Of a DNA stretch of 64,000 nucleotides, positions 6,209 to 31,291 are shown one piece after another. The stretch lies in NCBI GenBank assembly GCA_038869895.1, contig JAWCQE010000001.1:121879-185878 (forward strand). The letters run 5' to 3'. Every line of letters starts with the position of its first letter. Within the stretch, counting starts at the first letter, position 1. Position numbers and translations under genes: made by a program. The stretch comes from Candidatus Pacearchaeota archaeon (lineage in GTDB: Archaea > Nanobdellota > Nanobdellia > Pacearchaeales > GW2011-AR1). Under the pieces are notes generated by a model that had not been told where the DNA came from, searched no databases, and was given only the letters and a program-made list of their open reading frames with translations.

Positions 6209-6672
6209 TTCCAGACATAAAGATTAAATTTAATTAGTTTATTTTTATAGACGCTGATTCTTTCTATTTTTATTAAATTCTCAATTTTGGTTGAATTTAT
6301 TCTTCCAATATATTCTTTTTGAGTTCCATTGATTTCAAGATTGTCTATTGTAAAATAGAAATCGTCTTTGACTCCAAGACGTCTCTTTAGTAATTCATAA
6401 TTTGAATTGTAGAAGTTTTCTAATTTAGTTTGATTTATTATATTATCTGATAGAATTCCGCTTTCATCATTATTTAATATCAATTCTGAAGCAGTTCTTC
6501 CTTGATTAAGTAAGTCGTCAAGTTGATTCCCTGCTTGATTTGCATAGTTGATTGTAAATATAAAAAGCATGATTATGCCAGATGTAAATATAATCATTGC
6601 AATAATTATATCCAGACTCCATGCCTGTGCTTTCTTTTTATTTCCTTTATTGATTAAGATAAACTTCACCAT
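6205..6672 (-). CDS. Prepilin-like protein
   Basis: The N-terminus ...KGNKKKAQAWSLDIIIAMIIFTSGIIMLFIF has a KKA|Q context plus a hydrophobic helix. It overlaps both neighbouring genes, giving an operon-like arrangement. Confidence 0.5.
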   Translation of the reverse strand: MVKFILINKGNKKKAQAWSLDIIIAMIIFTSGIIMLFIFTINYANQAGNQLDDLLNQGRTASELILNNDESGILSDNIINQTKLENFYNSNYELLKRRLGVKDDFYFTIDNLEINGTQKEYIGRINSTKIENLIKIERISVYKNKLIKFNLYVWK

Positions 6673-7036
6673 TTTCTTTCTTTATAATATTTTCTCCTTT
6701 TAGTATCTCTCCGTTTACAGGAACAATATTATAAAGAACTCCAGTATCTTCAGTATACACATATATGCTGTTGTTTACAATTTTTACTTCATAGTTTTTT
6801 CCAATTATAGTTTGAGGGAGATTAAATTTTCGGGAATAACCATTTGATGATTTTGATGCAAGAGCTATTTCCTCTCTGACATTAAGAGCTATATTTTGGA
6901 CAATTATGTTTTCTTTTTCTTTGTTCTTTTCATTTATATTTCCAGATATCACTCCAAGGAATAAAACAAAGAAGAAAAGTATAGCTCCAAAAATAACAAT
7001 GAATTCTATAATCCCTTGTCCTCTTTTATTTTTCAT
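6647..7036 (-). CDS. Prepilin-like protein (class III signal peptide)
   Basis: The N-terminus MKNKRGQGIIEFIVIFGAILFFFVLFLGV has an RG|Q context. It is the first gene of the minus-strand pilin run. Confidence 0.6.
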   Translation of the reverse strand: MKNKRGQGIIEFIVIFGAILFFFVLFLGVISGNINEKNKEKENIIVQNIALNVREEIALASKSSNGYSRKFNLPQTIIGKNYEVKIVNNSIYVYTEDTGVLYNIVPVNGEILKGENIIKKENGEVYLNQ

Positions 7037-12256: not shown

Positions 12257-12487
12257 ATGAGAACTCATTCATTAAATTCTATTTTGATTGTTCTTGGAAT
12301 TTTCTTATCTATTTTTATTCTTGCTTCTCTGACTAATTTTTCTCCCCCAAACAAAAAAGATGTAAGGTTAAGTGAAGATGATAGAGGAACTACAACTTAT
12401 GAGGCAACTGCCACAGGAATGACTTTAATCTCTTCATTGCAATCTTCAGCATCATCTAGTGGTGATAGTCAAATCAACCAGTTATAG
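12257..12487 (+). CDS. Small signal-anchored protein; probably the N-terminal part of a frameshifted Cys-rich secreted protein
   Basis: It has an N-terminal hydrophobic signal/anchor (ILIVLGIFLSIFILASL) followed by a Ser/Thr-rich linker. It ends at TAG 12485-12487, while the frame-1 ORF is already open from 12469. Confidence 0.4.
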   Translation: MRTHSLNSILIVLGIFLSIFILASLTNFSPPNKKDVRLSEDDRGTTTYEATATGMTLISSLQSSASSSGDSQINQL

Positions 12488-12834
12488 ATTCTCCTAAGAG
12501 TGGTGATTTATGTTGTGGTGAAAGAAAACCTAAGGAAGTGTGGTGTGAGGACAATATATTTCACATATGTAAATCTGATTGTTTGATAGCAAAGGTAAAT
12601 TGTAGTGAATATGGAAAAATCTGCGGGATTAGTCCTCTTGATAAGGAATTATATGGTTCAGAAGAAATAAAATGCTGCTCTCCATGTCCTTATCCGGAAG
12701 GAACCAAAGTGTGTTCTTATGATAAAACTAAAATTTATGAGTGTGTTAAAGATTATCAATTAAAGCTAGCGGAAACTTGTCCTGATGGAAAAATATGTTT
12801 TGTTGATATAAATAATAATGCAGTTTGTATTTAA
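12469..12834 (+). CDS. Cys-rich secreted-type domain lacking its own ATG and signal peptide; probable 3' part of a frameshifted gene
   Basis: The open frame runs from 12469. The first candidate start is only GTG at 12538. There are about 19 Cys in ~115 residues (CCGE..WCEDN..HICKSDC...). No signal peptide is present. Confidence 0.4.
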   Translation, partial: SNQPVIDSPKSGDLCCGERKPKEVWCEDNIFHICKSDCLIAKVNCSEYGKICGISPLDKELYGSEEIKCCSPCPYPEGTKVCSYDKTKIYECVKDYQLKLAETCPDGKICFVDINNNAVCI

Positions 12835-12920: not shown

Positions 12921-12968
12921 TATGTAAAATAATATGTTAAATAATATGTAAAATAATATGTTAAATAA
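12921..12968. repeat. 24-nt tandem repeat x2 with a 12-nt sub-period TATGTWAAATAA (x4) and a fifth degenerate copy
   Basis: Read directly from the sequence: tatgtaaaataatatgttaaataa at 12921-12944 and again at 12945-12968. The repeat overlaps the predicted start of the wHTH ORF. Confidence 0.85.
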
Positions 12969-13155
12969 TATGAATATTAATAATAAAGAGATATTAGATT
13001 TTGTAAAAAGTAAAAAGATAGTTACAAGTTCAGAAGTTGCGAAAAAATTTAATATTTCATGGAATACTGCAGATAAATATCTTCTTGAACTCGCATTTAA
13101 TGATAAAATCGAAAGAATTAAAAAAGAAGGGGTGAATTTATGGATTTTAAAATAA
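12958..13155 (+). CDS. Small winged-helix DNA-binding protein (65 aa)
   Basis: ...ILDFVKSKKIVTSSEVAKKFNISWNTADKYLLELAFNDKIERIKKEGVNLWIL follows the HTH-plus-wing pattern of small archaeal wHTH regulators. The start is ambiguous (ATG at 12958 or 12970). Confidence 0.5.
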   Translation: MLNNMNINNKEILDFVKSKKIVTSSEVAKKFNISWNTADKYLLELAFNDKIERIKKEGVNLWILK

Positions 13156-13970
13156 AAAGTCAGATAAGTAAAAAATCAGCTTGCAAGAAAGGACAGGTGA
13201 CAATTTTTGTTATTATCTCTCTTCTTCTTGTTGTTGCAATAATCCTATTATTTATCCTTTACAAAAATCAGCAGATTCCTGGAGTAAGAGTCGAAAAAAC
13301 TTCTGGCGAGGAACTCGAGTCTTGTATTAAATCTTATCTTGAAGAAGCAGTCGATTTAATTTTTGAAAATTCTGGGTATATTGAACTGCCGGAATTAACT
13401 TATCAAATAAGAAATATTTATGGATATTACAAACAAGAAAATGAAAAGAAAATCCCTTATTTGTGTTATACTGCAATTAATTATGTAAGATGCATTCCGC
13501 AAGAGCCTTTTTTTGTAAACCATATAGAAGATGAAATAAAAAATTTCATAATTCCAAAAGTTGAGATATGTTTTGAGAATTTAAGGAATAGATTGCAAGA
13601 AAGAAATTATGAAACAATGTTTGGTATAACAAAAAATTTAGATGTTGAATTAAATGAAAGAGGAGTCCAAATTTATATTGAAAAAGAAATTTCGCAAACA
13701 AAAGCAGAGAAAGAAGAACGTTTTAGCGAATTTAAGTCTAATTATAAGACAAGATTGTATGATGTAGCAAAAATATCTGAAAAAATTATCACAGAGGAGG
13801 TTAAATTTTGCAATTCTGATTATGTTGAAGTGATGAGAAATAATAAATTAATTGAAATAACAAAATTTCAGACAGGAGATGATGTTAAAGTTTATTCTGT
13901 TAAGGATTTACCTTCAAAGAAAGAATTTAAATTTGCTGTAAGGAACTGTGTCCTTGCAACTCCATCTTAA
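13140..13970 (+). CDS. Prepilin-like protein, module A; paralog of 17934-18734
   Basis: The N-terminus ...SACKKGQVTIFVIISLLLVVAIILLFILY has a KG|Q context plus a hydrophobic helix. It appears to align end to end with the 17934 ORF, for example at ...PYLCYT..NY..C..Q and at the C-terminal F(K/N)FAVR. Confidence 0.55.
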   Translation: MDFKIKSQISKKSACKKGQVTIFVIISLLLVVAIILLFILYKNQQIPGVRVEKTSGEELESCIKSYLEEAVDLIFENSGYIELPELTYQIRNIYGYYKQENEKKIPYLCYTAINYVRCIPQEPFFVNHIEDEIKNFIIPKVEICFENLRNRLQERNYETMFGITKNLDVELNERGVQIYIEKEISQTKAEKEERFSEFKSNYKTRLYDVAKISEKIITEEVKFCNSDYVEVMRNNKLIEITKFQTGDDVKVYSVKDLPSKKEFKFAVRNCVLATPS

Positions 13971-13971
13971 A

Positions 13972-16900
13972 ATGAATAAAAAGTTTATCGCAGGAATTGA
14001 AATTTTTCTTGTCATAAGCATGGCTGTTTCATTTTCATGGATTCTAGGAAATATTTATGGGACTTCTCCAGATATAAAAAGTTTATTAGAATTTATAACA
14101 ATAATTCCAAGTGTTTCTGCCCAAACAACTACATCATGTTGTCTTAATTTGAAAAGCGGAGCCAGTTGTACTGACATTCCATCTGATTCATGTTCTGATA
14201 TTTGTGATGGAAATTGTGTTTCAGGGACAACATGTTCTCAACTAAGGGAATGCAATCTTGGATGTGGATTTAATTCTGATGAAGGAACATGCACTCCAAA
14301 TACTCCAAGGGTACTATGTGAAGGAGATGAGGGCTGTGAATTTCTTGATGACCCTTTTTGCAACAATCAAAAATGTGAAATTGGATGTTGTGTTCTTGGA
14401 TTGAGTGCGAATTTGGAGACGAGAACTGGATGTGAAATACAATCTTTAAGAAGAGGAGTATCATTTGAATTTGACAGTTCAATAAAAGATGGCGTTCAAT
14501 GTTTGAATAAGGGTAAAACAAGTGAGGGAGCTTGTGTTGTAAATTTTGGAGAAGAAAAAAATAACTGCATTTTTACAACACAAAGTGAGTGTGTCAACAA
14601 TATAAAAGGAGTTTTTTATGAAGGCTATCTTTGTTCTCATCCAGAACTTAAAACAATATGTGTGAAGCAGTCAAGAGTAAGTTGTTTTGACAATAGGGAT
14701 GAGGTATATTGGTATGATTCATGTGGGAATAGAGAAAATATTTATTCATCAAATAGGGCAAGTTCATGGAATAATGGATTCGTCTTATCGAAAGAGAAAT
14801 CATGCAATCCTAATTCTTCAAATGAAAATTCAGGAAGCTGTGGAAATTGTAATTATAATCTTGGAAGTATATGCGGAGAGTTTAGGCCTGGAGTTGATTC
14901 TGGAAATATGGAAGGTTATACTTGTAGAAATTTAAACTGCATTGATTCAAAAGGAAAACAAAGAACAAACGGAGAATCATGGTGTGTTTATGATGGAACT
15001 ATAGGCGGAGGAAGTATACTTGAAGGGAAGAGTGGGGGATTATTATCAAAAATAGCTGGAGGATTATTGGAGGGAGAGGTTGCATTATTAAGCACTGATT
15101 TAGTAGGGAGCAGACATTTTAGGCAGGTATGTGTTAATGGAAAAGTAGAGGTAGAACCATGCGCTGATTATAGGAAGGAGATATGTGTCCAGAATGATAA
15201 ATCCCTTGATAATGGAAGAAAGATTGATAATGCAATATGTAGGATGAATTTATGGGAACAATGTATTTCATACAATCAAGGAAATGAGGGATGTGGGCCA
15301 GGATGTTTAACCAAATGTGTGAAAAATCCAGATTGTAGGATTCATCCTGTTTTTGTTGACTCTCGTTTTAAATTTAATGCTTGTGTCCCAAAATATCCTC
15401 CTGGATTTGATTTAGGAAGTACAAGCGGAGTAGATAGTTTTGTAAGAAATTATGTATCAAGTTCTATTAGTGATTTGGATGGAGGTGGGGTTCTTTCAAA
15501 ATTATCAGGAAGTTTAAGTTCTGAGAATTCTGCAGGAAGCATTTGTTCTTTAGCATCGCAAAAATGCACTAGTATATGGACTAAGACATGCGGACTATCA
15601 GGAATTCATTGGGAATGCACGAAAAACTGCAAATGCCATACTGAATCTTTTACAATTCAGATGAATAATCTTTGTGTTTCTCTTGGAGATTGTGGAGTTT
15701 ATGCAAATTATGAAGGAAAGGTTACTCCTGGTGGAGCTTATGTAACAAAGAAAGGAGGACATGGAAGGACCCCTCTACAACCATTTATTTTGATTCCAGT
15801 TTATGCTGTTTTAGTTAAAATATTAAAACCAACTCCTCCAAGTGGTGGATTTTTTCGAGATGAGAAAGACATAGTGAATTTTCCAACTGAAATTATTGAT
15901 CCATTCTTAGGAGGGTATAATAGAATAGATGTAGGGAAACTGCCAAGTCAGTTGGATAATATGCTTGGAAGCCAGTTAGGAACAACTATCGGAGCAGGAG
16001 TTGCTGGAGGACTTGTAGGAGGGGTAGTTGCAGGACTAGGAGGAGTTACAGCTGCAGGTCTTGGAGTTATTGGGGCTGCTACACAAGGAATATTATGGGC
16101 ACCAATTATTTTTCCAACAGGGGGGGTGGGTATGTTACAAATACCAGTTACTTTTTATGCTCCCACTAACAATATCCTTTCAACTGTATTTCACGGACAT
16201 TATTTAGGTAAACCATTTTTCGGATTTGATCCTTTATCAATTGCAATTGGAATCGCAGTTGGAATCGCGATTACTTATCTTATTGGATGTGGAAAAGTTA
16301 AGACAGTTGATATCAAATTTCAGTGTTTACCTTGGCAAAGGCCAAAAGGCGGGACTGATTGTGAGAAATGTGATGATGACCCTTTGAAACCATGTTCAAG
16401 GTATAGGTGTGAATCTCTTGGAGCAAGATGCACTTTGATAAATGAAGGAAAAGGAGATGTATGCGTAAGTGTTTCTGGGGAAAGTTCTATACCAGTAATT
16501 AGTCCATGGGAAGAGATACTCAATACCTCTTTTTATAGGTATGAAGACATAAGTCCTAATGGATTTAAAATAAGAACAAAAGATGGACAGTGTATACAGG
16601 CATTTACTTATTTAGTTTTTGGAGTTGAAACAGATGTTTATTCGGAGTGTTTCTGGAGTTTAGAACCATTTGCATATGAAAATAAATCAGAGGCAAATTT
16701 ATTTTTAGAAGGAAATCTTTTAACTAAAAATCATACAATGCTAACTTTATTGCCAAGTGTTGAAAGTTTATTGGCTAATGAAATTAATAACCAAGAAGAA
16801 TTGGGACAGGCATTGGAAACAACAACAGAACAGGACATCAGCGCCAGGCAATACATATTAAATCGATTAGGAGATTTAAATATCTATGTAAAATGCGCAA

Positions 16901-17898
16901 ACCTTGATGGAAAAGCCAACGACCAGGATTATAAAATAAACTTCTGTGTGTCTCCTGGGCCAGATATACAAGAACCGGTAATAATTGCGTCTTCTCCTCC
17001 GCAGAACAACTTCACAAAATTTGATGCAACAGAACAAGAAGCTTTCTTTTTTATTTCAGAACCAGCTGAATGTAGATGGGATAGTACGAGGCAAGTTATA
17101 TCAAATGAATTAGAATCATATAATTCATTGAGAAATGAAATGGAATGTAGTGTTGATTTAGATGAAAGTACAATACTTGGATGGCCGTGCAATGCAACTC
17201 TTCCAATAACAGGCGAGGAAAATAGATTTTTTATTCAATGTCGAGACCAGCCGTGGCTTGGAAATAATAACTCAAGAAACATAGGAGACATTTTTGAATA
17301 TTCGTTAAAAAGAAGTAATTCTGAATTAAAAATAACTTCTATTAAACCTAATGAAAAAGTCTTTGCAGGAAGTGAACCTATTATGATTGAATTGGAAGTT
17401 GAGACATCAGGAGGAGTTGAAAATGGAAACGCTTTCTGCAAATATAGTTTTGACAATAATCAATTTGTAAATTTCAGAATTACAGGCGAGAAAGTTCATA
17501 GCCAAATTCTAAATCAGATGAGAAAAGGAGATTATAAAGTTTATATTCAGTGTAATGATTTTGCAGGAAATGTTGCAGAAGGCATTGGGGAGTTCTCATT
17601 AGAACTTGATACTAAAGCCCCTGTTATAACAAGAGTTTTTAGTAATGCTAACACTTTATTCATTACAACAGATGAAGAGGCAAAGTGTTTTTATAAGAAT
17701 GAATCTGATGTAGGATGTAATTTTCCGTTAAATAATGTTACTGAATTTAATATTACTGAATTTACAAAGAATGGAAATATTCACTCAACTCCTTTAATAA
17801 AAGGAAAGAGTTACTATATAAAATGCGAAGATATTTGGAGCAATAGAGCTGAGAGTTGTTCTATTGTTGTAAGGAGTTTTGAAAATTTTGCAAGTTAA
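13972..17898 (+). CDS. Giant Cys-rich envelope protein (fused form): signal peptide, Cys-rich ectodomain, Gly-rich TM region, Cys-knot-like segment and four beta-sandwich-like repeats
   Basis: The ORF-track frame is 13948-17898. I prefer the ATG at 13972, directly after the upstream stop, which gives MNKKFIAGIEIFLVISMAVSF. The predicted cleavage is VSA|QTTTSCC. Its halves are homologous to the 618-aa and 694-aa ORFs downstream. No family was recognised. Confidence 0.7.
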   Translation: MNKKFIAGIEIFLVISMAVSFSWILGNIYGTSPDIKSLLEFITIIPSVSAQTTTSCCLNLKSGASCTDIPSDSCSDICDGNCVSGTTCSQLRECNLGCGFNSDEGTCTPNTPRVLCEGDEGCEFLDDPFCNNQKCEIGCCVLGLSANLETRTGCEIQSLRRGVSFEFDSSIKDGVQCLNKGKTSEGACVVNFGEEKNNCIFTTQSECVNNIKGVFYEGYLCSHPELKTICVKQSRVSCFDNRDEVYWYDSCGNRENIYSSNRASSWNNGFVLSKEKSCNPNSSNENSGSCGNCNYNLGSICGEFRPGVDSGNMEGYTCRNLNCIDSKGKQRTNGESWCVYDGTIGGGSILEGKSGGLLSKIAGGLLEGEVALLSTDLVGSRHFRQVCVNGKVEVEPCADYRKEICVQNDKSLDNGRKIDNAICRMNLWEQCISYNQGNEGCGPGCLTKCVKNPDCRIHPVFVDSRFKFNACVPKYPPGFDLGSTSGVDSFVRNYVSSSISDLDGGGVLSKLSGSLSSENSAGSICSLASQKCTSIWTKTCGLSGIHWECTKNCKCHTESFTIQMNNLCVSLGDCGVYANYEGKVTPGGAYVTKKGGHGRTPLQPFILIPVYAVLVKILKPTPPSGGFFRDEKDIVNFPTEIIDPFLGGYNRIDVGKLPSQLDNMLGSQLGTTIGAGVAGGLVGGVVAGLGGVTAAGLGVIGAATQGILWAPIIFPTGGVGMLQIPVTFYAPTNNILSTVFHGHYLGKPFFGFDPLSIAIGIAVGIAITYLIGCGKVKTVDIKFQCLPWQRPKGGTDCEKCDDDPLKPCSRYRCESLGARCTLINEGKGDVCVSVSGESSIPVISPWEEILNTSFYRYEDISPNGFKIRTKDGQCIQAFTYLVFGVETDVYSECFWSLEPFAYENKSEANLFLEGNLLTKNHTMLTLLPSVESLLANEINNQEELGQALETTTEQDISARQYILNRLGDLNIYVKCANLDGKANDQDYKINFCVSPGPDIQEPVIIASSPPQNNFTKFDATEQEAFFFISEPAECRWDSTRQVISNELESYNSLRNEMECSVDLDESTILGWPCNATLPITGEENRFFIQCRDQPWLGNNNSRNIGDIFEYSLKRSNSELKITSIKPNEKVFAGSEPIMIELEVETSGGVENGNAFCKYSFDNNQFVNFRITGEKVHSQILNQMRKGDYKVYIQCNDFAGNVAEGIGEFSLELDTKAPVITRVFSNANTLFITTDEEAKCFYKNESDVGCNFPLNNVTEFNITEFTKNGNIHSTPLIKGKSYYIKCEDIWSNRAESCSIVVRSFENFAS

Positions 17899-17933
17899 AT
17901 TTATAAAGAAATTTGTTTTTAGAAGGTAATAGA

Positions 17934-18734
17934 ATGATTAAATCAAAAAACAAAAGAGGACAGACAACAATCTTTGTTATCTTAGCAGTAGTTATTGTTG
18001 CAGTCATAGTGATTTTTTTTGCAGTTACGGATATAGGGAGAGAAACTTTTGAAAAAATCTCTAATATTGTTGGCAGTGATGAGATTAATGTTAAAGAAGA
18101 ATTGAATAAATGTTTTATTGATAACAGCGAAATCAATAAAAAAATAAATCTAATTATGTCACAGGGAGGAAGTATTGAACCTTCTTTATTTTTTCTTCAT
18201 AATGGAACGAAATTAAGTTATTTATGTTATACTAATGAATTTTATAAGACATGTGTAAATCAGCAGCCTTTAATATTACAACATACAAAGAATGAGATAA
18301 ATAGGGCAATTCTTCCAGAAATAGATAAATGTATTTCTTCATTAAAAGCCAATTTTGAAAAAAGAGGATATCAAATAAGAGGACAGAATTTCGAGAGTTC
18401 AATAGATATAATTCACAACAACATAATTATTAAAATAAATTTCCCTCTAACTATCAAAAAGGGGGATTTAACACAGACATTTGAAAATTTTGAAATAAAA
18501 AAACATAGCCAGTATTATCAATTATTAAGTGTTGCAACATCAATTGTAAATTTTGAATCCCAATATGGCGATAGTGATCCAGTTTTATATATGTCTCTTT
18601 ATCCGAATACAAGAGTTGAAAAATTAAAACAAGGAGATGGGACAACAATTTATAAGATTAGTGATAGGGAAACAATGGAAACTTTTAACTTTGCTGTAAG
18701 AAGTTTGGCTTTGCCTATAGGATATGGATTATAA
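17934..18734 (+). CDS. Prepilin-like protein, module B; paralog of 13140-13970
   Basis: The N-terminus is MIKSKNKRGQTTIFVILAVVIVAVIVIFFAV, with an RG|Q context. The ATG at 17934 is preceded by GAAGGT. The ORF-track start at 17913 is a TTG. Confidence 0.55.
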   Translation: MIKSKNKRGQTTIFVILAVVIVAVIVIFFAVTDIGRETFEKISNIVGSDEINVKEELNKCFIDNSEINKKINLIMSQGGSIEPSLFFLHNGTKLSYLCYTNEFYKTCVNQQPLILQHTKNEINRAILPEIDKCISSLKANFEKRGYQIRGQNFESSIDIIHNNIIIKINFPLTIKKGDLTQTFENFEIKKHSQYYQLLSVATSIVNFESQYGDSDPVLYMSLYPNTRVEKLKQGDGTTIYKISDRETMETFNFAVRSLALPIGYGL

Positions 18735-18750
18735 ATTCAAATAGTTAAAA

Positions 18751-20607
18751 ATGGTGATTGAAAAAAAAGAAGAAAAATTGAAGAGAAAATTTACAAGTAA
18801 TTACTTTTTAGGTTTTAGTCTGTTTATTTTTTTTATTTTATTTTTTTCATCTTATGTCACGGCGCAGACAACGACAGTATGCTGTGAAAAAACTTTAAAT
18901 GGAGCTTACTGCCAGAATTCCATTCAAAGCCAGTGTGATTCAAGATTTTTAAGTTCACAAACAAGCTGTGATGCGACTTCTTTCTGTCAATTAGGAGTTT
19001 GTTATGATAGTGATGATGGATTATGTATGAATAATGTTCCTCAAAGGGCATGTGAAGAAGCAAACGGATTGTGGACAAGTGATGCAAATCCTCCCCAATG
19101 CAATTTAGGATGTTGTATTCTTGGGCAGCAGGCTTCTTTTACAACTCTTCAAAGATGTAAGAAATTATCTGGAACTTACGGACTTCAAGTGGATTTCAGA
19201 ACAGACATCAAAGACGAAGTTTCTTGTATTGCAGTTGCAAATGCACAAGACATTGGAGCTTGTGTTTTTGAGTCAGAATTTACAAGAACCTGTAAATTTG
19301 TTACAAGAGCTGAATGTGGCACTTCAATGAACTCAACAAATTCAGGAGTAGTTCCTAATACGCAATTTTTCAAGGATTTTTTATGTACTTCAGAACAGCT
19401 TAATACAAACTGCCAGAGAACCTCAAAAACTTCTTGTTTTGAAGGAGAGGATGAAGTTTATTTTATTGATAGCTGTGGGAATAAGGCTAATATTTATGAT
19501 GCTTCAAGAATAAATGATAAAAATTATTGGGAAAAAAGAGTTCCTAAAAGTCAGAGCTGCACTGCCTCTAGGAATTCTAGAAGTTGTGGAAACTGCGATT
19601 ATCTTGAAGGAAGTATTTGTTCTAAAGCTAAAGATTCTGGTGTTAAGCCAGCTTATGGCGAATTTATCTGTAGGGATATAAATTGTTATAGTACTTCAAA
19701 TGGAAAAAATTACAAAAATGGGGAGTCATGGTGTTTTTACGACAATAATAATAAAGGGGATGATAGGGTTGGAAGTAGACATTTTAGGCATATTTGTTTT
19801 ATGGGAGAGGAAATTGTAGAACCATGCGCTGATTATAGGCAAGAAACATGCATTGAAGATTCGATAAATGTTGAGGGCGGTGGAACTTTTCTACAAGCAG
19901 GATGTGTTGTGAATAGGTGGCATGATTGTTTGTTGCAGAAAAGAATTGAAGATTGCCAAAATACTGATTTAAGAGATTGTAAATGGATTCCGGTTTCTGA
20001 AGAACCTGAAGAGATAGCAAAAGGGATAATTGATGCATCTTTAAATAAAATTACAAATGGATTTTCTGGATTATTAATGAATGTTATTGAAAAAGATGAA
20101 AGAGATAAAGGGGCTTGTGTTCCAGATATTGCTCCAGGACTTGAATTTTGGGGGGAGTCGGCGGCATCTCAGTGTGACTTAGTAAGTTCAAGTTGTGTTA
20201 TAACTTATGAAAAGACGTTAATTGGAGGAAAAAAGTGTGTTAAGAATTGCTTTTGTGATATAAAAGAAAACCCACAAACAGCAATTCAGGCATTGAATAT
20301 ATGTTCCTCTATAGGAGACTGCGGACCAGGAGCAAATTATATAGGAAAATTTGTTAATAATGGTTATGAACTAAGAATAGATGACAAAAAAATAGGTCCT
20401 GAACTTAATTTAGGAATTTTTACTGCTTCTCCTGTTCAAAGTGGAAGTCCTGCAAATCCCTCTACAAATCCCTCTTTTGAACAAAGAAGAGAATTTTCAA
20501 CAGCAACACAACAGACATTTCAAACTCAAACCTCAACTGCAACTTCAACAACAGGAAATATTATCAAAGATATAATAACTGAAACATATAAACAACTTGG
20601 AAAATAA
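18751..20607 (+). CDS. Cys-rich secreted protein, homolog of the N-terminal half of the 13972-17898 protein
   Basis: The signal peptide ends ...YVTA|QTTTVCC. It shares the motifs GCCILG, CGNCDY, NGESWCFYD and VGSRHFRHICFMGEEIVEPCADYRQETC. It has a T/Q/S-rich low-complexity C-terminus. Confidence 0.7.
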   Translation: MVIEKKEEKLKRKFTSNYFLGFSLFIFFILFFSSYVTAQTTTVCCEKTLNGAYCQNSIQSQCDSRFLSSQTSCDATSFCQLGVCYDSDDGLCMNNVPQRACEEANGLWTSDANPPQCNLGCCILGQQASFTTLQRCKKLSGTYGLQVDFRTDIKDEVSCIAVANAQDIGACVFESEFTRTCKFVTRAECGTSMNSTNSGVVPNTQFFKDFLCTSEQLNTNCQRTSKTSCFEGEDEVYFIDSCGNKANIYDASRINDKNYWEKRVPKSQSCTASRNSRSCGNCDYLEGSICSKAKDSGVKPAYGEFICRDINCYSTSNGKNYKNGESWCFYDNNNKGDDRVGSRHFRHICFMGEEIVEPCADYRQETCIEDSINVEGGGTFLQAGCVVNRWHDCLLQKRIEDCQNTDLRDCKWIPVSEEPEEIAKGIIDASLNKITNGFSGLLMNVIEKDERDKGACVPDIAPGLEFWGESAASQCDLVSSSCVITYEKTLIGGKKCVKNCFCDIKENPQTAIQALNICSSIGDCGPGANYIGKFVNNGYELRIDDKKIGPELNLGIFTASPVQSGSPANPSTNPSFEQRREFSTATQQTFQTQTSTATSTTGNIIKDIITETYKQLGK

Positions 20608-22692
20608 ATGGAGAATAAAAAGTTAAGAAGAATGAAAAAAAAGGGAATAAAAAAAAGTGAAGGATTATTTTTAATAGCGAATATTCTTTTAGGGATTTTT
20701 GCCTTTGCGTTTATTATGAACGTTGAAGTTGTTAGAGGGCAGGCGGACGGAGTAGGTTCTAATGGAGATGAGGAGGGGAAAGTTGAGGACCAGAATGGGA
20801 TTGGCAATAAGGGGGGGAAAACAGGGGAAGAAAAAGGATCTAAAAAATTTAAAATAGGTAATTTCACAAAATCAGCAAGTTATATAACAGGAGGACTTGC
20901 GTTAGGACAAATTATAAAAGAACTTGCTGGTGATGAACCATGGGGGGATGCATTAGGGAATGCGTTGGGAGTTGCTGGAGGAGTTTCAGGTTTTTCTAGT
21001 TTATTTCCTGAAAAAACCTTTTTAGGAGGTAATGCTCATTTATTAGGGGTAGGGGCAGGAATACTAACTTTTATTTTAACATACAAGAAAATTGAATATG
21101 AAACTGTTTTTTTTACATGTCAACCATGGGAAGCTCCTATTGGAGGGAATGACTGTGAGAAATGTAATGATGGAGTCCATCCATGTTCTGAATATAGGTG
21201 CAAGAGTTTAGGACAGGCTTGTGATTTAGTTAATAAAGGAACTGAAAAGGAACTCTGCGTCTGGACAAATCCAAGAGATGTAAATAGTCCTTCAATAAGG
21301 CCACTTGAAAGCGCTTTAAGTCCAGGATATAGATATGTTCCTTTAGGGGCAAGGCCTCCTAATTGGGGAACTCAAATAAAACCTTTGGGAGACGATTGTA
21401 TTCCTCCATTTACTCCAATACAATTTGGAATACAAACAGACAAACCTTCTCAATGTAAGATTGACTTTTTAATTCTTGGAGGAGCGGGAGATGTTGATGT
21501 AAAACCAAAAGGATACGATGATATGAAATTCTTTTTTGGCATGAGTAATTTATATGATTATAATCATATTCAATCTTTGAGCTTGCCAAGTCCTAATACT
21601 ATAAATAAAGTTGATGAATTAAGGCAGAATGAAACAGGAGGTTTAGAAATACAAAATGATGGCATATATAACTTATATGTGCGATGTAGAAGTGCGAATG
21701 GATTTTATAATGCAGACCCTTATAAAATAAATTTCTGTGTTCAGAAAGGGCCAGACTTAACTCCTCCAGAAATTGTTGAAACAAGCATAAGAAACGGACA
21801 GCCTATAAACTTTGAAGCGGATAATGTAACTTTAAGTGTATTTACAAACGAACCTGTAAATTGCAAATGGTCAAGAGATAATGATTTAAGTTTTGAGAGT
21901 ATGAATAATGAAATGATATGCGCTAATAACCTTCAGGATATAAGAAATAATATGCTTTATGAGTGTAGAACTAGATTGACTGGAATAAAAGATAGGCAGG
22001 ATAATTTATTTTATTTCAGATGTGAAGACCAGCCTTGGGAATCTCCAAGCAATAGAAATAAAATGTCTAGAGGATATCAATTTGTCTTAAAAGGAACACA
22101 GCCTTTGAATATTAAACAAGATTCAATAAAGCCAATATCAGGGAGCATTTTAACAGGAGCGACTTCAACAATTCCTATAACTCTGGAAGTTGAAACTCAA
22201 AATGGATTTAATGAGGGAGAATCTGTTTGTCTTTATAGTTTGAATAATGAAACTTTCATAAGATTTTTTGAAACAAATTCATTTAAGCACAAGCAGACTC
22301 AAGATTTAACTCAGGGAGAATATACTTATTATATAAGATGTGTGGATTTAGGAGGAAATCAAGATTATGGTATTACAACTTTCAGTGTTTTTGTTGACAC
22401 TCAAGCACCATTAATTACAAGAGTCCTAAATGATAATAATAAACTTAAGATAATTACAGATGAGGAAGCAGTATGTAGATATACAAATGATATAAATACA
22501 AGATGCAATTTTGACATTAACGAGGGAGAGGGAAATCCAATGCAATATCCTTCTCAAAATCAGAGAAAAGAACATCTTGCAATGTGGAATACAAAAGAGA
22601 CTTATTATATCAAATGTATGGATATTAACAATAGACAACCGAATCCGACAGAATGTTCAATAATTGTTCGTCCTGTTGAGTTAAGAGAATAA
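20608..22692 (+). CDS. Membrane-anchored Cys-rich protein, homolog of the C-terminal half of the 13972-17898 protein
   Basis: The ATG directly abuts the upstream TAA (20605-20607). It has an N-terminal anchor LFLIANILLGIFAFAFIM, a Gly-rich region, then FTCQPWEAPIGGNDCEKCNDGVHPCSEYRCKSLGQAC. These are followed by four repeats matching those of the fused protein. Confidence 0.7.
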   Translation: MENKKLRRMKKKGIKKSEGLFLIANILLGIFAFAFIMNVEVVRGQADGVGSNGDEEGKVEDQNGIGNKGGKTGEEKGSKKFKIGNFTKSASYITGGLALGQIIKELAGDEPWGDALGNALGVAGGVSGFSSLFPEKTFLGGNAHLLGVGAGILTFILTYKKIEYETVFFTCQPWEAPIGGNDCEKCNDGVHPCSEYRCKSLGQACDLVNKGTEKELCVWTNPRDVNSPSIRPLESALSPGYRYVPLGARPPNWGTQIKPLGDDCIPPFTPIQFGIQTDKPSQCKIDFLILGGAGDVDVKPKGYDDMKFFFGMSNLYDYNHIQSLSLPSPNTINKVDELRQNETGGLEIQNDGIYNLYVRCRSANGFYNADPYKINFCVQKGPDLTPPEIVETSIRNGQPINFEADNVTLSVFTNEPVNCKWSRDNDLSFESMNNEMICANNLQDIRNNMLYECRTRLTGIKDRQDNLFYFRCEDQPWESPSNRNKMSRGYQFVLKGTQPLNIKQDSIKPISGSILTGATSTIPITLEVETQNGFNEGESVCLYSLNNETFIRFFETNSFKHKQTQDLTQGEYTYYIRCVDLGGNQDYGITTFSVFVDTQAPLITRVLNDNNKLKIITDEEAVCRYTNDINTRCNFDINEGEGNPMQYPSQNQRKEHLAMWNTKETYYIKCMDINNRQPNPTECSIIVRPVELRE

Positions 22693-22848: not shown

Positions 22849-23541
22849 TCAAGCAAGATAATCTATAGTTAGTTTTGGTGCTATATCTAGTAAGCCAGTT
22901 CTTTGGGCAAGTTCCCTAGAAATAAATCCCACTCCGTGGTCATCGCCGCCATACCCATCATCAATGTCTCTCCCTTTAATAGTGAATCCGTAATTTGGTT
23001 CTCCAGCAACCCAACCTCGGACAGCTTGTTTAACATCCCAGTTATGGACTCTTCCATCTAAAATAATTCTTGAAGAAGAAATAAATTCCATATGATTAAA
23101 AGAAGAATTATGAGTTAAACCTCCTTCTTGCCAAGGATTTAAGGTAAGTTTATCAATATCTACTGTAGCTATTGGTTGTATACGGGACGCTGTTATTACA
23201 GAACTCATGGAAAAAATTGCACTATCAATCCTTGCATTTCTTGGGATACTTGAAACGTCAAATTTTACATACCCTCTAAAACTTGCACTACGTTGTGGAG
23301 TGTGGATTTCACCAGTTTGTATAATATCTTCTCTTCCGTAATTTGTTGCAGGATTTTCAGAACTTGTATAAGTATCTCCAATGGCATATAAAACAATGGA
23401 ATGGAACTCTCCGTTTCCACCTCCTCCTCCGCCTCCGTCTCCCCCTCCAGGGTTGCTAGAAGGACAACCTGCTATTATCCAGTAGCCTGCTAATCCTAAA
23501 GTTTTTAAAATTTCCCTTCTTGTAATTATATCCCCCTTCAT
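22849..23541 (-). CDS. Tat-signal lipoprotein with DNRLRE/CBM96-like beta-sandwich domain
   Basis: The N-terminus TRREILKTLGLAGYWIIAGC has a twin-Arg motif plus a lipobox-like Cys, followed by a poly-Gly linker. The domain reads ...GDTYTSSENPATNYG...GYVKFDVSSIP.NARIDSAIFSM...WQEGGLTHN...WDVKQAVRGWVAGEPNYGF, which fits my recollection of the DNRLRE domain. Confidence 0.55.
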   Translation of the reverse strand: MKGDIITRREILKTLGLAGYWIIAGCPSSNPGGGDGGGGGGGNGEFHSIVLYAIGDTYTSSENPATNYGREDIIQTGEIHTPQRSASFRGYVKFDVSSIPRNARIDSAIFSMSSVITASRIQPIATVDIDKLTLNPWQEGGLTHNSSFNHMEFISSSRIILDGRVHNWDVKQAVRGWVAGEPNYGFTIKGRDIDDGYGGDDHGVGFISRELAQRTGLLDIAPKLTIDYLA

Positions 23542-23838
23542 TTTTTTATTTAAAATTAAGAGTTTAAATATTTTTCCTTTTGATGTGGTTTGTAAAGTAA
23601 ATCCTTAAATCAAGTTACTTTTTTTACAAAGGGTAATTATTTTACGAAACTTATTCAGATGAATTGTAAATGAATCTTCAAATTTGATTTTATTTATAGG
23701 GCAATATCGATATCTTACAAATAGCAAGATTAGATAAGGTATTTTTATCAATATTAAATTTATTTATATATTATAGAAATTACAAATTTTACTATTTATT
23801 TTATACTTTTAAGTATAATTAATTATTATAAATAGAAT

Positions 23839-24969
23839 CTATTCTGTTCTAAAATGATGTTCTATATATTCAACCATCTCGCGAGCTGAAAGTTTAACAC
23901 TTGCTGGCCCATTTCTTATGTAAAATTCCTCTTCATTTTGAAATTTTACAAAAACAGGCTTTTTTGATTTTTGACATTCAATCTTTAGAACATGTTTATC
24001 ATCTACTGGAAAGAGTTCAAATTCAATAAAATGGAGATATTCATTTCCTATGTATTTTTTAAGAAGATTTGTGAAATGAAGATTTAGCGAATCATTATCT
24101 TTGAAATTATCCTTTTCCAATCCACATATTTTTCCATTGTCATTTACTCCTATTAATAATGTTCCTCCTTCTGTATTGAGAAAAGCAGAAATAGTTTTTA
24201 TTGTAGAATATTCGATTTTGCTATCAATCTCATTTGTATGAAGATTTGTCCTTAATGTTGATTTAAATTCGAGATTTTTTGATTCTCCAACACTTATTAT
24301 TTTTTTTATTTCATCAGAAGATTCTTCCAAAGTATTTCTAATTCTAAAAAATCGCTTATATCTCTCAATTTGTTTTGAAACAAACTTAGAGATTATTTTT
24401 ATTTCTCCATTTTGTATATATGAATATCCGATTAGTGATATTATAAACGCCCCGAATGTGTTTGTTATAATGTCTTTCATTGTGTCAATATTGGACTTTT
24501 GCATTTTGAATCCAAAGAGATTGTCAATTGAAAATTCAATTATTTCCCATAATACCCCTACAGCAATTGTAAAACAGAAAGTCAGGAATGAAATAATCAA
24601 TGGATTTGCTTTTATTTTCCTATCCCTATACAGAGCATATAATATAATAAGTCCGACAATTCCAAGAACGCTTGCTGCAATAAGATTAAGGGCAATATCC
24701 CACCACCAAAACTCAGCAAAAAATCCTCTCACTTCACTTAGAAAAAGGATTCCATAAATTGATAGTATGATTATTATTTCATAAATCGCAGGAAAATTAA
24801 CTCCAAGCGTTTTCAATACTTTTGGAACAAATGTTGCAACAAATCCTATTAACGAAAAGACCATTACAAGATTTCTTCCATAATAAATTGAACTTATGAA
24901 GGCTAAAGCAAGGAGCCCTCTTATTAAATTAATCACCAAAAATTTAACTTTCTCTCTTTCCTCTCCCAT
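23839..24969 (-). CDS. Membrane protein (about 5-6 TM) fused to a C-terminal AlbA_2/Schlafen-like putative DNA-binding domain
   Basis: The N-terminal ~200 aa are polytopic. The C-terminal part reads GESKNLEFKSTLR.N........KIEYSTIKTISAFLNTEGGTLLIGVNDNGKICGLE, the hallmark of the AlbA_2 (divergent AAA/Schlafen-type) domain. Confidence 0.6.
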   Translation of the reverse strand: MGEEREKVKFLVINLIRGLLALAFISSIYYGRNLVMVFSLIGFVATFVPKVLKTLGVNFPAIYEIIIILSIYGILFLSEVRGFFAEFWWWDIALNLIAASVLGIVGLIILYALYRDRKIKANPLIISFLTFCFTIAVGVLWEIIEFSIDNLFGFKMQKSNIDTMKDIITNTFGAFIISLIGYSYIQNGEIKIISKFVSKQIERYKRFFRIRNTLEESSDEIKKIISVGESKNLEFKSTLRTNLHTNEIDSKIEYSTIKTISAFLNTEGGTLLIGVNDNGKICGLEKDNFKDNDSLNLHFTNLLKKYIGNEYLHFIEFELFPVDDKHVLKIECQKSKKPVFVKFQNEEEFYIRNGPASVKLSAREMVEYIEHHFRTE

Positions 24970-25159: not shown

Positions 25160-25648
25160 ATGAAAAGAGGACAATTTCAACTTGGATTTGGAATGATTTT
25201 CTCTATTATATTGATAATTGCATTTATAATTGTTGCATTTATTGCTTTCAAAGCTTTTTTTGGAGTGAGGTGTTCTACTGAACAAGGAAGATTTATTTAT
25301 GAACTTCAGAATGAAATTGACAGGATATGGAAAGGCTCGGGCGAGGATAGGATTAAGGAATTTAAAATTTTAGGATGTGATTTTGATTATGTTTGTTTTT
25401 GGGATCCAAATGTTCCTTCAAGAGGAAATTTCAGAACTTTTGAAGACGATTTCAGTATTTTTACAGGAGATGAAGGAAACCATAATTTATATTTTTATCC
25501 AAGAAAAAAAGTAGAAATTTCTTCAACCTTGATAAAGCATATTAATATGGATTTTAGAGAGAATCCTGTATGTTTTAGAAACGAGGAGAATTCTGTTAAA
25601 ATAAGACTCAGCAAAAACATTGACGAAGATTTAGTAAGAGTCTCATAA
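25160..25648 (+). CDS. Prepilin-like protein (class III signal peptide)
   Basis: The N-terminus MKRGQFQLGFGMIFSIILIIAFIIVAFIAF has an RG|Q context. It is the first gene of a tightly packed four-gene run. Confidence 0.6.
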   Translation: MKRGQFQLGFGMIFSIILIIAFIIVAFIAFKAFFGVRCSTEQGRFIYELQNEIDRIWKGSGEDRIKEFKILGCDFDYVCFWDPNVPSRGNFRTFEDDFSIFTGDEGNHNLYFYPRKKVEISSTLIKHINMDFRENPVCFRNEENSVKIRLSKNIDEDLVRVS

Positions 25649-25649
25649 A

Positions 25650-26600
25650 ATGAATAAAAATGGTTTTGAGTTCAGCTTTGCATGGCTGTTTGCGATAATT
25701 GCTGGTGCAGCTGTGCTTTTTCTTGCAATTTTTTTTGCAACAAAATATGTTTCAACAAGCGAATTTGAAATTAATACAAAAATTGCAGCCGAATTTGTAA
25801 ATGTTCTTAATCCTTTGCAAACAAGTGTTTATGATTCATCTGCAATAAATGTATTTCTCCCATCTGAAGCGAGAATTTTTACTTCATGCGATAGTGGAGG
25901 AAATTTTGGAAGAAGTATTGTAACTTTTTCCGAAAAAATAGGTTTTGGTGAAAAATTTTCAAGGGCAGGCAATCCAATCTCAACTGAAAATTCATATTTA
26001 TTTGCTGAAAATATTATTGAAGGAAAAAAGATTAATTTTCTTGTTTTCTCTTTAAAAATGCCTTACAAAATTGGGGATATTCTTATAGCTTATTCTGATT
26101 CTTACTGCTTTGTAAATGCCCCAAGAAATATTGAGAGAGAACTTGGAGATTTAACAGAAGGAAATAGTTTTGATGTCATATTCACTTCAAATAAAAATGC
26201 CTGTCCTGAAAGTAAGCCTGTGTGTTTTGGAGGTTTTGAATGTGATATAAATGTAAGATGCAACGACAATGAATGTTTAAGTGGATTTGTAAGAAAGGAT
26301 GGAATGGATAATTATTTTACTGGAAAACTTTTATACGGAGCGATATTTTCGTCAAGGGAAAATTATGAGTGTAATGTTAAGAGATTAATGAAGAGGCTTG
26401 AATCAGTTAGCACTATTTATTCTAAAAAATCCCAGTTTATAGCTTCAAGAGGATGCACTAATACAAATTTGCTTCCATTAATTGAATCTCTTAGAGAATC
26501 TTCTGGAGAATTTGAAAGGCTTGAAAACCTCCCACAAATTTCCTCTATTGCAGACGAAGTAAATGAAAAAAATAAATATCTTGAATGCCAGTTATTTTAA
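25650..26600 (+). CDS. Prepilin-like protein
   Basis: The N-terminus MNKNGFEFSFAWLFAIIAGAAVLFLAIFFA has an NG|F context. It starts 1 nt after the upstream stop. Confidence 0.55.
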   Translation: MNKNGFEFSFAWLFAIIAGAAVLFLAIFFATKYVSTSEFEINTKIAAEFVNVLNPLQTSVYDSSAINVFLPSEARIFTSCDSGGNFGRSIVTFSEKIGFGEKFSRAGNPISTENSYLFAENIIEGKKINFLVFSLKMPYKIGDILIAYSDSYCFVNAPRNIERELGDLTEGNSFDVIFTSNKNACPESKPVCFGGFECDINVRCNDNECLSGFVRKDGMDNYFTGKLLYGAIFSSRENYECNVKRLMKRLESVSTIYSKKSQFIASRGCTNTNLLPLIESLRESSGEFERLENLPQISSIADEVNEKNKYLECQLF

Positions 26601-27125
26601 ATGAAAGATAAAAAAGCCCAATTAAAGATAAAGCAGATGATTTTTATGCTTCTAGCTCTAACTATTTTTTTTGTTCTTGTTGCTTTGTTTTTTATCTCAA
26701 TAAAATCAATTAACCTTGAGAAAGAGGTTGTTGAATTAAAAAGAGATAGAGCTTCTAACTTAGTTGAAAAACTTTCTTCAACTCCGGAATTTATATTTGA
26801 AAACAAACCAAATTCAATTGATGCAGATAAACTTATTATCCTTCAAAGTGAAAGTATATATAGAACGAGAACGGATTCGACTTTTTGGGGAGTTGAGGGG
26901 ATAATAGTAAGAAGAATTTATCCGAAAGAAAGAGAGATTGAATGCACTAAATTTAACTATCCTGAATGTAATATTATCAAACTTTTTACAGAAAAAAATA
27001 CAAGTCCAACTTCAAGTTTCGTTTCATGGTGTAGAAAACAAAGTCTTGAAGGAAGGACGTATGATAAATGCGAACTTGCAGAACTTATGATAATTGAGGA
27101 AAAAATAAATGAAGCTCAAGACTAA
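26601..27125 (+). CDS. Prepilin-like protein
   Basis: The N-terminus is MKDKKAQLKIKQMIFMLLALTIFFVLVALFFI. It abuts the upstream stop. Confidence 0.5.
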   Translation: MKDKKAQLKIKQMIFMLLALTIFFVLVALFFISIKSINLEKEVVELKRDRASNLVEKLSSTPEFIFENKPNSIDADKLIILQSESIYRTRTDSTFWGVEGIIVRRIYPKEREIECTKFNYPECNIIKLFTEKNTSPTSSFVSWCRKQSLEGRTYDKCELAELMIIEEKINEAQD

Positions 27126-27609
27126 AAAATCGCAGGAAGAAATAGTCGGGTTTGTTTTAATAGTTGTCCTTATTGCTATTATCGGAGTTATATTTTTAGG
27201 GATATCCTTAAGAAAGGATTCAGGTAAGGTTAATGAAAGCCAAAAAATTGCAAGCCTTATAACTTCAATATCTCATTTGACAACTCAGTGTCAGATAAAT
27301 TCAAATTTCCAAGATGTAAGTGATTTAATAAATGGGTGTGCTAATAGAAGAATTTGCGATGATTCAAAGCCTACTTGTGAAGTCTTAAAAACCACTCTTG
27401 ATGAGGTTATGAAAGCAAGTTATGTTGTAACTGATAAAAGCTTTACAACACATTATAATTTAACAATAAATAATAAATTTGATAATACTATTTTAATAGA
27501 GCCGGTAATTTCAGGAAAAGTTGAAAGATGTCTTGGAAGAAAACTCGTAAATGAAAAAAATTTTGGCAGAGATTTATCAATGAGGATTGAAGTCTGTTTT
27601 AATGAATAA
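27109..27609 (+). CDS. Prepilin-like protein
   Basis: The N-terminus is MKLKTKKSQEEIVGFVLIVVLIAIIGVIFLGI. It overlaps the upstream gene by 17 nt. Confidence 0.5.
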   Translation: MKLKTKKSQEEIVGFVLIVVLIAIIGVIFLGISLRKDSGKVNESQKIASLITSISHLTTQCQINSNFQDVSDLINGCANRRICDDSKPTCEVLKTTLDEVMKASYVVTDKSFTTHYNLTINNKFDNTILIEPVISGKVERCLGRKLVNEKNFGRDLSMRIEVCFNE

Positions 27610-27661: not shown

Positions 27662-28015
27662 TTAAATTCGCACAATAATGTTAATAGTATTGGCAGTCAA
27701 CACTGGCTTATGAGTTATCCTTCCGTTATGTTGTTCTGCTACTAAATCAATTAAGCCAAATTTTCTTAATAAAAGGACATCCTCTCTTAATGTTTTGAAA
27801 TCTCTATTTAATATTTTTGCTAAAGAGTAAAGGGATTTTGGTTGTTTCATTTTGATTGTATGTAATAATCTTGCTTTTTCATTACTTAGTAACTTCCTCA
27901 ATATTGATAAATCTTTAATGTTATAATCTTCTTTACTTCCTGTGAATTTTCTAAACACAGAGGCAAATGTCCCAGCTTTCTCGTATATATCTATTATCCT
28001 TGTTTTGTCAACCAT
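27662..28015 (-). CDS. Winged-helix transcriptional regulator
   Basis: ...ARLLHTIKMKQPKSLYSLAKILNRDFKTLREDVLLLRKFGLIDLV... follows the HTH-plus-wing pattern. The gene is divergent from the candidate S-layer gene. Confidence 0.55.
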   Translation of the reverse strand: MVDKTRIIDIYEKAGTFASVFRKFTGSKEDYNIKDLSILRKLLSNEKARLLHTIKMKQPKSLYSLAKILNRDFKTLREDVLLLRKFGLIDLVAEQHNGRITHKPVLTANTINIIVRI

Positions 28016-31115: not shown

Positions 31116-31291
31116 AAACAATTTATTTTTACTTTTTCTTTTATTTTTTATTTATAAAATAATTATATATTAATTAAATTATAAAAAGTCAATAAACTAA
31201 TGTATCGTTCATTTAAAAAATAAAACTTGTTAAGAGATTATTGAATAATTTTATTAATAAACTTTTTAAACAAGATTTGATATTTTATAAA

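Follow-up and report, generated by a model that had tools for sequence, protein, structure and literature searches.

What kind of cell-surface structure might be built by a run of genes whose products resemble no described family? The question arises from a 64,000-nt stretch of Candidatus Pacearchaeota DNA (hereafter the window), in which six genes at positions 12958-22692 encode a tiny winged-helix (wHTH) protein, two prepilin-like proteins of about 270 aa and two versions of a giant cysteine-rich protein. One version (giant A) is a single fused chain, and the other is split into separate N- and C-terminal halves (N-half B and C-half B). Each version forms a module with the small prepilin-like protein encoded upstream of it (small A or small B). 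No part of this cluster could be assigned to a described family, and its product is therefore probably a cell-surface structure not characterised before. Tentatively, at somewhat less than an even chance, we take this structure to be a type-IV-filament-related cell-envelope complex associated with the surface layer (S-layer). Few uncultured archaea are as widespread as the Pace- and Woesearchaeota, and little is understood of the build of their envelope or of their cell contacts.

Paralogous modules in a conserved gene order

A sequence-only reading of the window had proposed that two consecutive modules were related by tandem duplication. All six of its open reading frames (ORFs) were found on the plus strand, and pairwise alignment revealed significant similarity between the modules, far beyond chance. 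Small A and small B shared 26% identity over 220 aa in BLASTP (E=7e-21). The 618-aa N-half B matched giant A residues 48-588 (33% identity, E=1e-67), and the 694-aa C-half B matched residues 759-1304 (35% identity, E=6e-80). The motifs that had been picked out by eye were all present, most of them invariant or nearly so in an alignment of 80 homologues. The packing of the core cluster was operon-like, with spacings from a 16-nt overlap, between the wHTH gene and the start of small A, up to a 35-nt gap. The wHTH gene said to head the locus was confirmed by a PF04703 match in a Pfam scan (23.6 bits, cut-off 20.7, E=6.5e-5). Giant A had a database entry that was 100% identical across 1308 aa, and small A was 100% identical to a protein of a Candidatus Pacearchaeota metagenome-assembled genome.

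The cluster proved to be widespread. GTDB was scanned with one genome per species; ORFs were called in 83 fetched loci and then searched with the window proteins, and 80 loci were kept, nearly all labelled Pace-, Woese- or Nanoarchaeota. A database search with giant A returned 546 relatives at E<=1e-3, all unnamed and with no recurrent Pfam assignment; the taxon labels shown were almost all Pacearchaeota or Nanoarchaeota. A HMMER search with the 618-aa protein found 1,453, 1,211 and 729 representatives of 50% identity clusters at E<=1e-3, 1e-10 and 1e-30, respectively, and these included proteins of split (about 470-690 aa) as well as fused (about 1,100-1,500 aa) length. Relatives of the giant occur in at least 568 GTDB species genomes, and the protein clusters at 50% identity number about 1,200, which places the cluster among the most consistently conserved surface loci of these archaea. 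Giant A had no tblastn match among 50,697 phage records, which leaves a viral origin unsupported. Our best reading is that the cluster is specific to the Pace- and Woesearchaeota (DPANN).

The order of tiny wHTH gene, small gene, fused giant, small gene, N-half and C-half was kept in nearly all of the fetched loci (about 80). A small protein of about 270 aa was almost always encoded directly upstream of a giant or an N-half. About half of the fetched loci had the wHTH homologue (about 61 aa) within the cluster (E<1e-5), and the 38 homologues that spanned more than half of the query had a median identity of 61%, making this the best conserved cluster gene.

Judged from best hits between loci, fused and split forms fall into distinct orthologous groups. 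The top match in another locus had the same form for 65 of 66 fused and 24 of 24 split C-domains, and for 86 of 87 fused and 62 of 62 split N-domains (237 of 239 for all domains pooled). Paralogues within a locus shared 34-36% identity, and best hits in other loci 56-60%. Because the two forms are orthologous across loci, the duplication and the split predate the divergence of the sampled lineages, with both copies kept. The proposed duplication thus stands as paralogy but not as a local or recent event, since the paralogy is ancient and clade-wide and the fused and split forms are fixed. Variants of the architecture were seen as well: module B was fused (about 1,300 aa) in loci L046, L057 and L081, a third small-plus-giant module was present in L038 and L064, and L080 carried two fused giants in a row.

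It might be argued that these genes form no joint system at all, and that they are unrelated neighbours or, in the case of module B, a decaying duplicate. The 618-aa and 694-aa ORFs do share one frame, with a lone TAA between them and an ATG directly after it. However, most loci kept the split, with both ORFs intact and each with its own leader, the split forms made up their own orthologous groups, and the gene order was fixed across about 80 genomes, so that we find this explanation hardly credible. In particular, the notion that module B is a broken pseudogene or a sequencing error was refuted, because the split is kept in other genomes.

Predicted architecture and cell location of the giant proteins

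Giant A starts with a hydrophobic leader and a Cys-rich N-half; the middle is Gly-rich and hydrophobic, and the chain ends in a Cys knot followed by four immunoglobulin (Ig)-like domains. AlphaFold models were built on 81-sequence alignments. The N-half model (residues 45-600) had a mean predicted local distance difference test (pLDDT) score of 84.7 and a predicted template modelling (pTM) score of 0.69. It started with four tandem β-hairpin/helix/strand mini-domains of about 45 aa each, followed by larger disulfide-rich domains, and two low-confidence stretches included Gly-rich sequence. No fold match to this model was found in the PDB, and a Foldseek search against BFVD was empty, giving no viral fold match. 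As modelled, the N-half is a head domain of about 540 aa, predicted with confidence and with no structural relative. The C-half model (residues 740-1308; mean pLDDT 89.4) contained one hydrophobic helix, a 7-Cys knot and four β-sandwich domains with a predicted Ig-like fold, in which the strand motif.D..GN was present.

Pfam and NCBIfam scans of the giants, including 38 family members, gave weak Ig-like matches only. Big_13, DUF4625 and Y_Y_Y each matched in 5-9 of the 38 and Big_3_3 in 3 of the 38, with a best E value of 8.9e-5; the best Big_13-type score, in C-half B, was 18.4 bits against a cut-off of 27. The domains of the cluster differ from these four families in that the matches remain below gathering scores and in the invariant Cys of each domain, which is atypical of them. 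A profile of the giant alignment found nothing significant among PDB sequences. The giants had no VWA or PilY1 Pfam matches and lacked the C-terminal β-propeller of PilY1-type proteins, which often carry an N-terminal VWA domain. They also lacked the three-domain β-rich ectodomain with fusion loops of class II fusogens and fusexins (HAP2, Fsx1). Unlike the neighbours at 28461-31115 and 33260-34897, they matched neither S_layer_C nor PACE-CTERM-type models. Kazal/follistatin-like small disulfide-rich modules are among the closest known kinds. The earlier statement that no part could be placed in a named family held up, and the cluster is wholly unannotated by Pfam, NCBIfam and PDB sequence search.

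The middle region was not conserved in sequence and was the least conserved part of the protein. In contrast, the last hydrophobic segment before the C-half was universal, and in giant A it formed a strongly hydrophobic helix (residues 752-775). Thus the Gly-rich transmembrane (TM) segments described from the sequence alone were mostly a non-conserved low-complexity stretch, and only this hydrophobic segment directly before the C-half held across the family. The leaders differed between the forms. A polar residue, usually E or Q, headed the leader in 58 of 87 fused giants and 28 of 40 split C-halves, often followed directly by a [VI]S[AG]-type site, but in only 3 of 68 split N-halves, which carried a plain Sec signal peptide. 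Since the giant and the split C-half share this leader, the giant looks like a C-half-type protein into which a Cys-rich N-half has been inserted just behind it. The C-half leader of one sub-clade was pilin-like, reading KRG-K-[IL]-A-[IL]-[ST]-[QE]-I-[LI]-I-L.

Hydropathy-based counting of TM segments left the topology ambiguous, and counts of N-glycosylation sequons were uninformative. Other signs pointed outward. The many cysteines (Table 1) had been placed in a secreted setting, and both the composition and paired Cys changes agreed with this. Variable N-half cysteines were gained or lost in pairs (56-88, 74-82, 98-130, 441-445 and 549-553). All 21 C-half cysteines were conserved in at least 98% of 90 sequences, and since they are near-invariant their co-variation gave no information. 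The Lys fraction was about 0.05 in both halves, compared with 0.043 in the S-layer protein and 0.085-0.16 in cytoplasmic proteins of the window, and the C-half domains were of a bacterial cell-surface Ig-like type. On the basis of Cys pairing and conservation, Lys fraction and Ig-like domains, we favour a topology with both halves outside and a membrane hairpin between them, formed by a marginal Gly-rich helix and a strong one.

Prepilin-type N-termini, filament machinery and the S-layer

The sequence-only reading had let the cluster end at 22692. This limit was too narrow, since four more pilin-like genes (p162, p316, p174 and p166) continue it at 25160-27609. The resulting footprint of about 12 kb (about 9.7 kb of core and 2.5 kb of p-genes) is a sizeable share for organisms described as having reduced genomes. 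The four genes are separated by a 1-nt gap, a 0-nt gap and a 17-nt overlap (p174/p166). In 15 of the 25 loci whose downstream sequence was long enough, they came straight after the C-half, in most cases no more than 41 nt away. An HVO_A0114-type wHTH gene followed p166 on the opposite strand in 23 of 26 loci, and an S-layer match lay downstream in 12 of 13 loci with enough sequence. No p162-p166 or S-layer matches were found after the C-half in L017, L023, L067 and L082. In the first three, where the downstream ORFs were read, housekeeping-looking genes followed; the core cluster of one sub-clade ends there.

All six small proteins shared one N-terminal feature. In each of the six families, across 26-82 loci, a short basic leader with [KR][GA] at its end ran straight into an apolar helix of about 20 residues. 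The N-termini of small A and small B, already described as prepilin-type, turned out to be part of the family-wide motif K[KR][GAS]Q.T.F.I, in which Q19 and T21 were invariant in 30 sequences. With the arrow marking the predicted cut, the consensus was K[KR][GA]↓Q[IV]T[IL]F[VI]I for small A/B, [KR]G↓Q[MF][QK][LI]SFGMIFSIILI for p162, [KR]G↓[FY]E[FI]SFAW[LI]FAII for p316, K[GA]↓QLKIQQMAFML for p174 and K[GA]↓QEE[IM]VGF for p166. Gln occupied position +1 in five of the six families, and p316 had F or Y there. The EppA substrates EpdA-E of Methanococcus maripaludis have the sites RA↓QI, KG↓QV, KG↓QL and KG↓QI, and EppA needs Gln at +1 (PMC4371748). The match of the leader sites to these tabulated sites suggests an EppA-type processing signature for the small families.

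Beyond the leader, the proteins had little in common with each other or with known families. Profile-profile comparison found the small and p316 families to be unrelated, and profile searches with their alignments against PDB sequences gave nothing significant. Pfam and NCBIfam scans returned no family match for 30 small-family and 28 p316-family members or for p162, p174 and p166, and p316 itself had no Pfam or PDB match. In this the cluster differs from the Epd pilins: its globular domains are unrelated to each other and, by sequence, to known structures.

Machinery for type IV filaments (TFF) is encoded nearby. A complete-looking locus of the TFF system-1 type lies 6-13 kb upstream of the cluster, with a T2SSE ATPase and two T2SSF platform genes 11-15 kb upstream. 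The combination of an ATPase with two platform genes is known as TFF 'system 1', reported from methanogens and DPANN (preprint 10.64898/2026.04.22.720090). Our cluster resembles the Epd/system-1 arrangement of M. maripaludis in its basic [KR][GA] leaders, the Gln at +1 and the apolar helix of about 20 residues. It is also similar in having several different pilin-like genes per operon and a system-1-type ATPase with two platforms in the genome region. It is unlike the Epd loci in that its pilin-like genes accompany giant Cys-rich membrane proteins.

The bacterial minor-pilin/PilY1 assemblies and the type II secretion pseudopilus tip (GspH-I-J-K) offer a functional analogy. They likewise bring to mind four pilin-like proteins (here 162, 316, 174 and 166 aa) combined with very large non-pilin surface proteins. 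However, the giants of the cluster have no β-propeller or VWA domain, are membrane-anchored, show no sequence homology to these systems and belong to an archaeal host with an S-layer. Another parallel is offered by the archaeal TFF and archaellum accessory proteins (e.g. arCOG05057) and the SlaB stalk, which are Ig-like chains at the envelope linked to TFF or S-layer genes. The Ig-like chain here differs from both in that a 7-Cys knot comes before it and in that a disulfide-rich head of about 540 aa is fused to it or, in module B, paired with it; no sequence similarity to these proteins turned up, although no search was aimed at them. A role in adapting the S-layer so that filaments can pass, or in anchoring it, has been suggested for the S-layer-like Ig-fold proteins that accompany archaeal TFF loci (preprint 10.64898/2026.04.22.720090). 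No description of the cluster was found in the literature searched.

These features can be combined into a possible mechanism. Sec would export the giant and its split counterpart, which would be anchored by one or more hydrophobic segments between their halves, exposing a novel disulfide-rich head (N-half) and a stalk of four Ig-like domains (C-half). The six class III proteins would comprise the two partners of about 270 aa, each encoded upstream of its giant, together with p162, p316, p174 and p166. An EppA/PibD-type prepilin peptidase would cut all six after [KR][GA], and TFF machinery encoded elsewhere might use their hydrophobic N-terminal helices to build a short stem resembling a pseudopilus or a set of minor pilins. 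This stem would couple to the two giants, with each small protein serving as the adaptor of its giant. The recurrent adjacency to an S-layer gene suggests a structure that stands in or crosses the S-layer, where it could act as a surface anchor or contact structure. In this scheme the paralogy, gene order, prepilin-type motifs, fold classes, signs of an outside location and neighbouring TFF genes are observed, whereas cleavage, co-assembly, topology, the S-layer tie and the function are inferred.

Several observations weigh against such a filament-related complex. Across about 80 loci, the conserved cluster contained no secretion ATPase, platform protein or prepilin peptidase, which sets it apart from Epd/system 1, and no A24 peptidase was found in the roughly 75 kb available. 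The linkage to TFF genes was not conserved either, the upstream genes in L001 and L003 being unrelated. No Pfam or NCBIfam model of pilins or class III signals matched any of the six proteins or of 58 family members, again unlike the Epd system. The products of p162, p316, p174 and p166 carry polar residues at +2 to +6, and what we take to be the strict FlaFind-type pattern was fitted by the small A/B family only. In 10 of 25 loci the p-genes were not adjacent to the core. As for the giants, having their own membrane anchor makes them a misfit for cargo at the tip of an extending pilus, and on the plainest reading of hydropathy, in which the leader is cleaved and one strong TM segment remains, the Ig-like C-half would lie in the cytoplasm.

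Part of this evidence could instead indicate an S-layer anchor or pillar, with the giants as membrane-anchored stalks that tether or space the lattice as SlaB does, the pilin-like proteins as S-layer binders that sit in the membrane, cleaved or uncleaved, and function like ArlF/ArlG, and no filament being formed. The S-layer gene downstream of nearly every cluster with enough sequence agrees with this, as do the lack of an obvious membrane anchor in the S-layer protein itself, the near-universal presence of the cluster in its clade, the Ig-like stalk and the missing ATPase and platform genes. The halves of the giants were also better conserved than the S-layer protein (median identity 35-44% versus 29%), which suggests a conserved housekeeping partner, perhaps the envelope of the cell itself, and not variable ligands of a host. 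A housekeeping envelope role therefore fits at least as well as host adhesion. Nevertheless, it is difficult to see why six families would keep strict [KR][GA]↓Q sites if their members were not processed and assembled as prepilins. In one sub-clade no S-layer gene adjoins the core cluster, and no SlaB or ArlF/G similarity turned up, although no comparison was aimed at these proteins. We regard a filament-free anchor as doubtful.

The same strong conservation of the heads argues against recognition of variable hosts, and with it against a host-contact, bridging or translocon device whose heads would bind a partner cell while Gly/Ala-rich hydrophobic segments, resembling a glycine zipper or fusion peptide, insert into the partner membrane as a pore or fusion bridge. 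Such a device would account for the long hydrophobic stretches rich in Gly, Ala, Val and Ile between the halves and for the Gly-rich loops inside the N-half. The sole PDB sequence match of the giant was to the hydrophobic region of AopB, a type III secretion (T3SS) translocator, with a non-significant E of 0.13 (13 bits). This match lay in a compositionally biased Gly/Ala-rich stretch, significant similarity across the translocator domain of AopB, YopB or IpaB was not found, and the Gly-rich region is the least conserved part of the giant, so we judge the device rather unlikely. A bolder version combining it with the filament-related complex, namely an envelope-spanning machine peculiar to Pace- and Woesearchaeota in which a prepilin stem carries the two giants, whose Gly-rich hairpins and novel-fold heads cross the S-layer and contact a partner cell or form a channel into it, seems to us unlikely; if true, it would supply missing hardware for DPANN cell-cell contact and exchange. 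Finally, archaeal substrate-binding proteins also use class III signal peptides (preprint 10.64898/2026.04.22.720090; PMC4371748), and the cluster might serve bindosome-like nutrient capture, with TFF machinery displaying binding proteins and the giants acting as scaffolds. This appears quite improbable, as no ABC transporter or permease genes were seen in or beside the cluster in about 80 loci and the small proteins matched no substrate-binding protein family.

The filament-related, S-layer-associated complex accordingly remains the interpretation we tentatively prefer. There is a small chance that the cluster, which we take to be a TFF-associated surface system, is instead something categorically new. 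The cluster limits, the fixed fused-plus-split architecture and the EppA-type signatures are defined here, and they provide six cleavage sites, two small-giant pairs and the S-layer link as targets. They also bear on how archaeal type IV filaments integrate with the S-layer.

Gene inventory and other features of the window

Table 1. Features of the core cluster, its downstream extension and the upstream filament locus (window positions; arrows mark predicted cleavage sites).
Feature	Position	Strand	Remarks
T2SSE ATPase	in L084, upstream of window start		basis T2SSE
Two T2SSF platform genes	19-330 (cut), 327-1289		basis T2SSF
KaiC/ArlH-like ATPase	1342-2127
KRG↓QAAMEF pilin	2138-2569	-
Four pilin-like genes, one of 820 aa with VWA domain	2827-7036	-
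Tiny winged-helix protein, 65 aa	12958-13155	+	cluster head; PF04703 FaeA-like
Small A, prepilin-like, 276 aa	13140-13970	+	KKG↓QVTIFVI, then globular domain of about 230 aa; 4 invariant Cys
Giant A, fused form, 1308 aa, 72 Cys	13972-17898	+	ATG start
Giant A N-half, residues 50-590	14119-15741	+	four mini-domains of about 45 aa, then larger disulfide-rich domains (predicted)
Giant A middle region, residues 591-780	15742-16311	+	Gly/Ala-rich, low-complexity, hydrophobic
Giant A C-half, residues 781-1308	16312-17898	+	7-Cys knot (C.PW..P.GG..C..C...), then four Ig-like β-sandwich domains (predicted)
Small B, prepilin-like paralogue of small A, 266 aa	17934-18734	+	KRG↓QTTIFVI; ATG at 17934
N-half B, 618 aa, 43 Cys	18751-20607	+	free-standing Sec-type secreted copy of the Cys-rich N-half; no membrane anchor
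C-half B, 694 aa, 21 Cys	20608-22692	+	giant-type hydrophobic leader, Gly-rich loop, hydrophobic helix, Cys knot, Ig-like domains
p162, pilin-like	25160-25648	+	KRG↓QFQLGFGMIFSIILI
p316, pilin-like, 10 Cys	25650-26600	+	KNG↓FEFSFAWLFAII
p174, pilin-like	26601-27125	+	KKA↓QLKIKQMIFML
p166, pilin-like	27109-27609	+	KKS↓QEEIVGFVLIV
HVO_A0114-type wHTH	27662-28015	-	PF25212, E=8e-14
S-layer-type protein, 884 aa	28461-31115	+	PF05124 S_layer_C, 33.1 bits vs cut-off 23.9

Two minus-strand genes at 22849-24969 separate C-half B from p162; in most relatives the corresponding gap is at most 41 nt. One encodes a secreted protein of 230 aa that combines a CBM96 domain with a poly-Gly linker, and the other a 376-aa membrane protein with a Schlafen/AlbA_2 domain. 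The pair looks like a lineage-specific insertion that divides the cluster.

Directly after the S-layer gene, two plus-strand genes at 31241-32562 encode proteins of 214 and 225 aa with one N-terminal TM segment each and no family match. The 214-aa gene also followed the S-layer gene in L024, L042 and L070, and the 225-aa gene in L042 and L070. On the minus strand at 32680-34897, a pacearchaeosortase gene (NF033505, E=7e-60) adjoins that of a PACE-CTERM putative S-layer protein (NF033506, E=1e-112). This 545-aa protein (33260-34897) and the 884-aa S_layer_C protein are two different S-layer-type candidates. With the cluster, the pacearchaeosortase and both candidates located there, the region from 12.9 to 35 kb of the window appears to be an envelope-gene island.

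Just upstream of the wHTH gene of the cluster, the plus strand at 12257-12834 carries two consecutive ORFs in different frames: the first (76 aa) has a signal/TM segment and a tail rich in Ser, and the second (98 aa) has 16 Cys but lacks a leader. The pair was not seen upstream in L001 or L003. It looks like one small secreted Cys-rich gene broken by a frameshift, either real or an assembly error.

Farther downstream, a presenilin/signal-peptide-peptidase homologue (PF06550, E=2e-14) is encoded on the minus strand at 54905-55873, and it was the only intramembrane aspartyl protease seen in the window. An Rfam scan at gathering thresholds found no small-subunit (SSU) or 5S ribosomal RNA (rRNA) in the window, so the rRNA genes appear to be unlinked. 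The archaeal large-subunit (LSU) rRNA gene stands alone on the minus strand at 37181-40015, where the local GC content is 0.43 compared with about 0.29 elsewhere.

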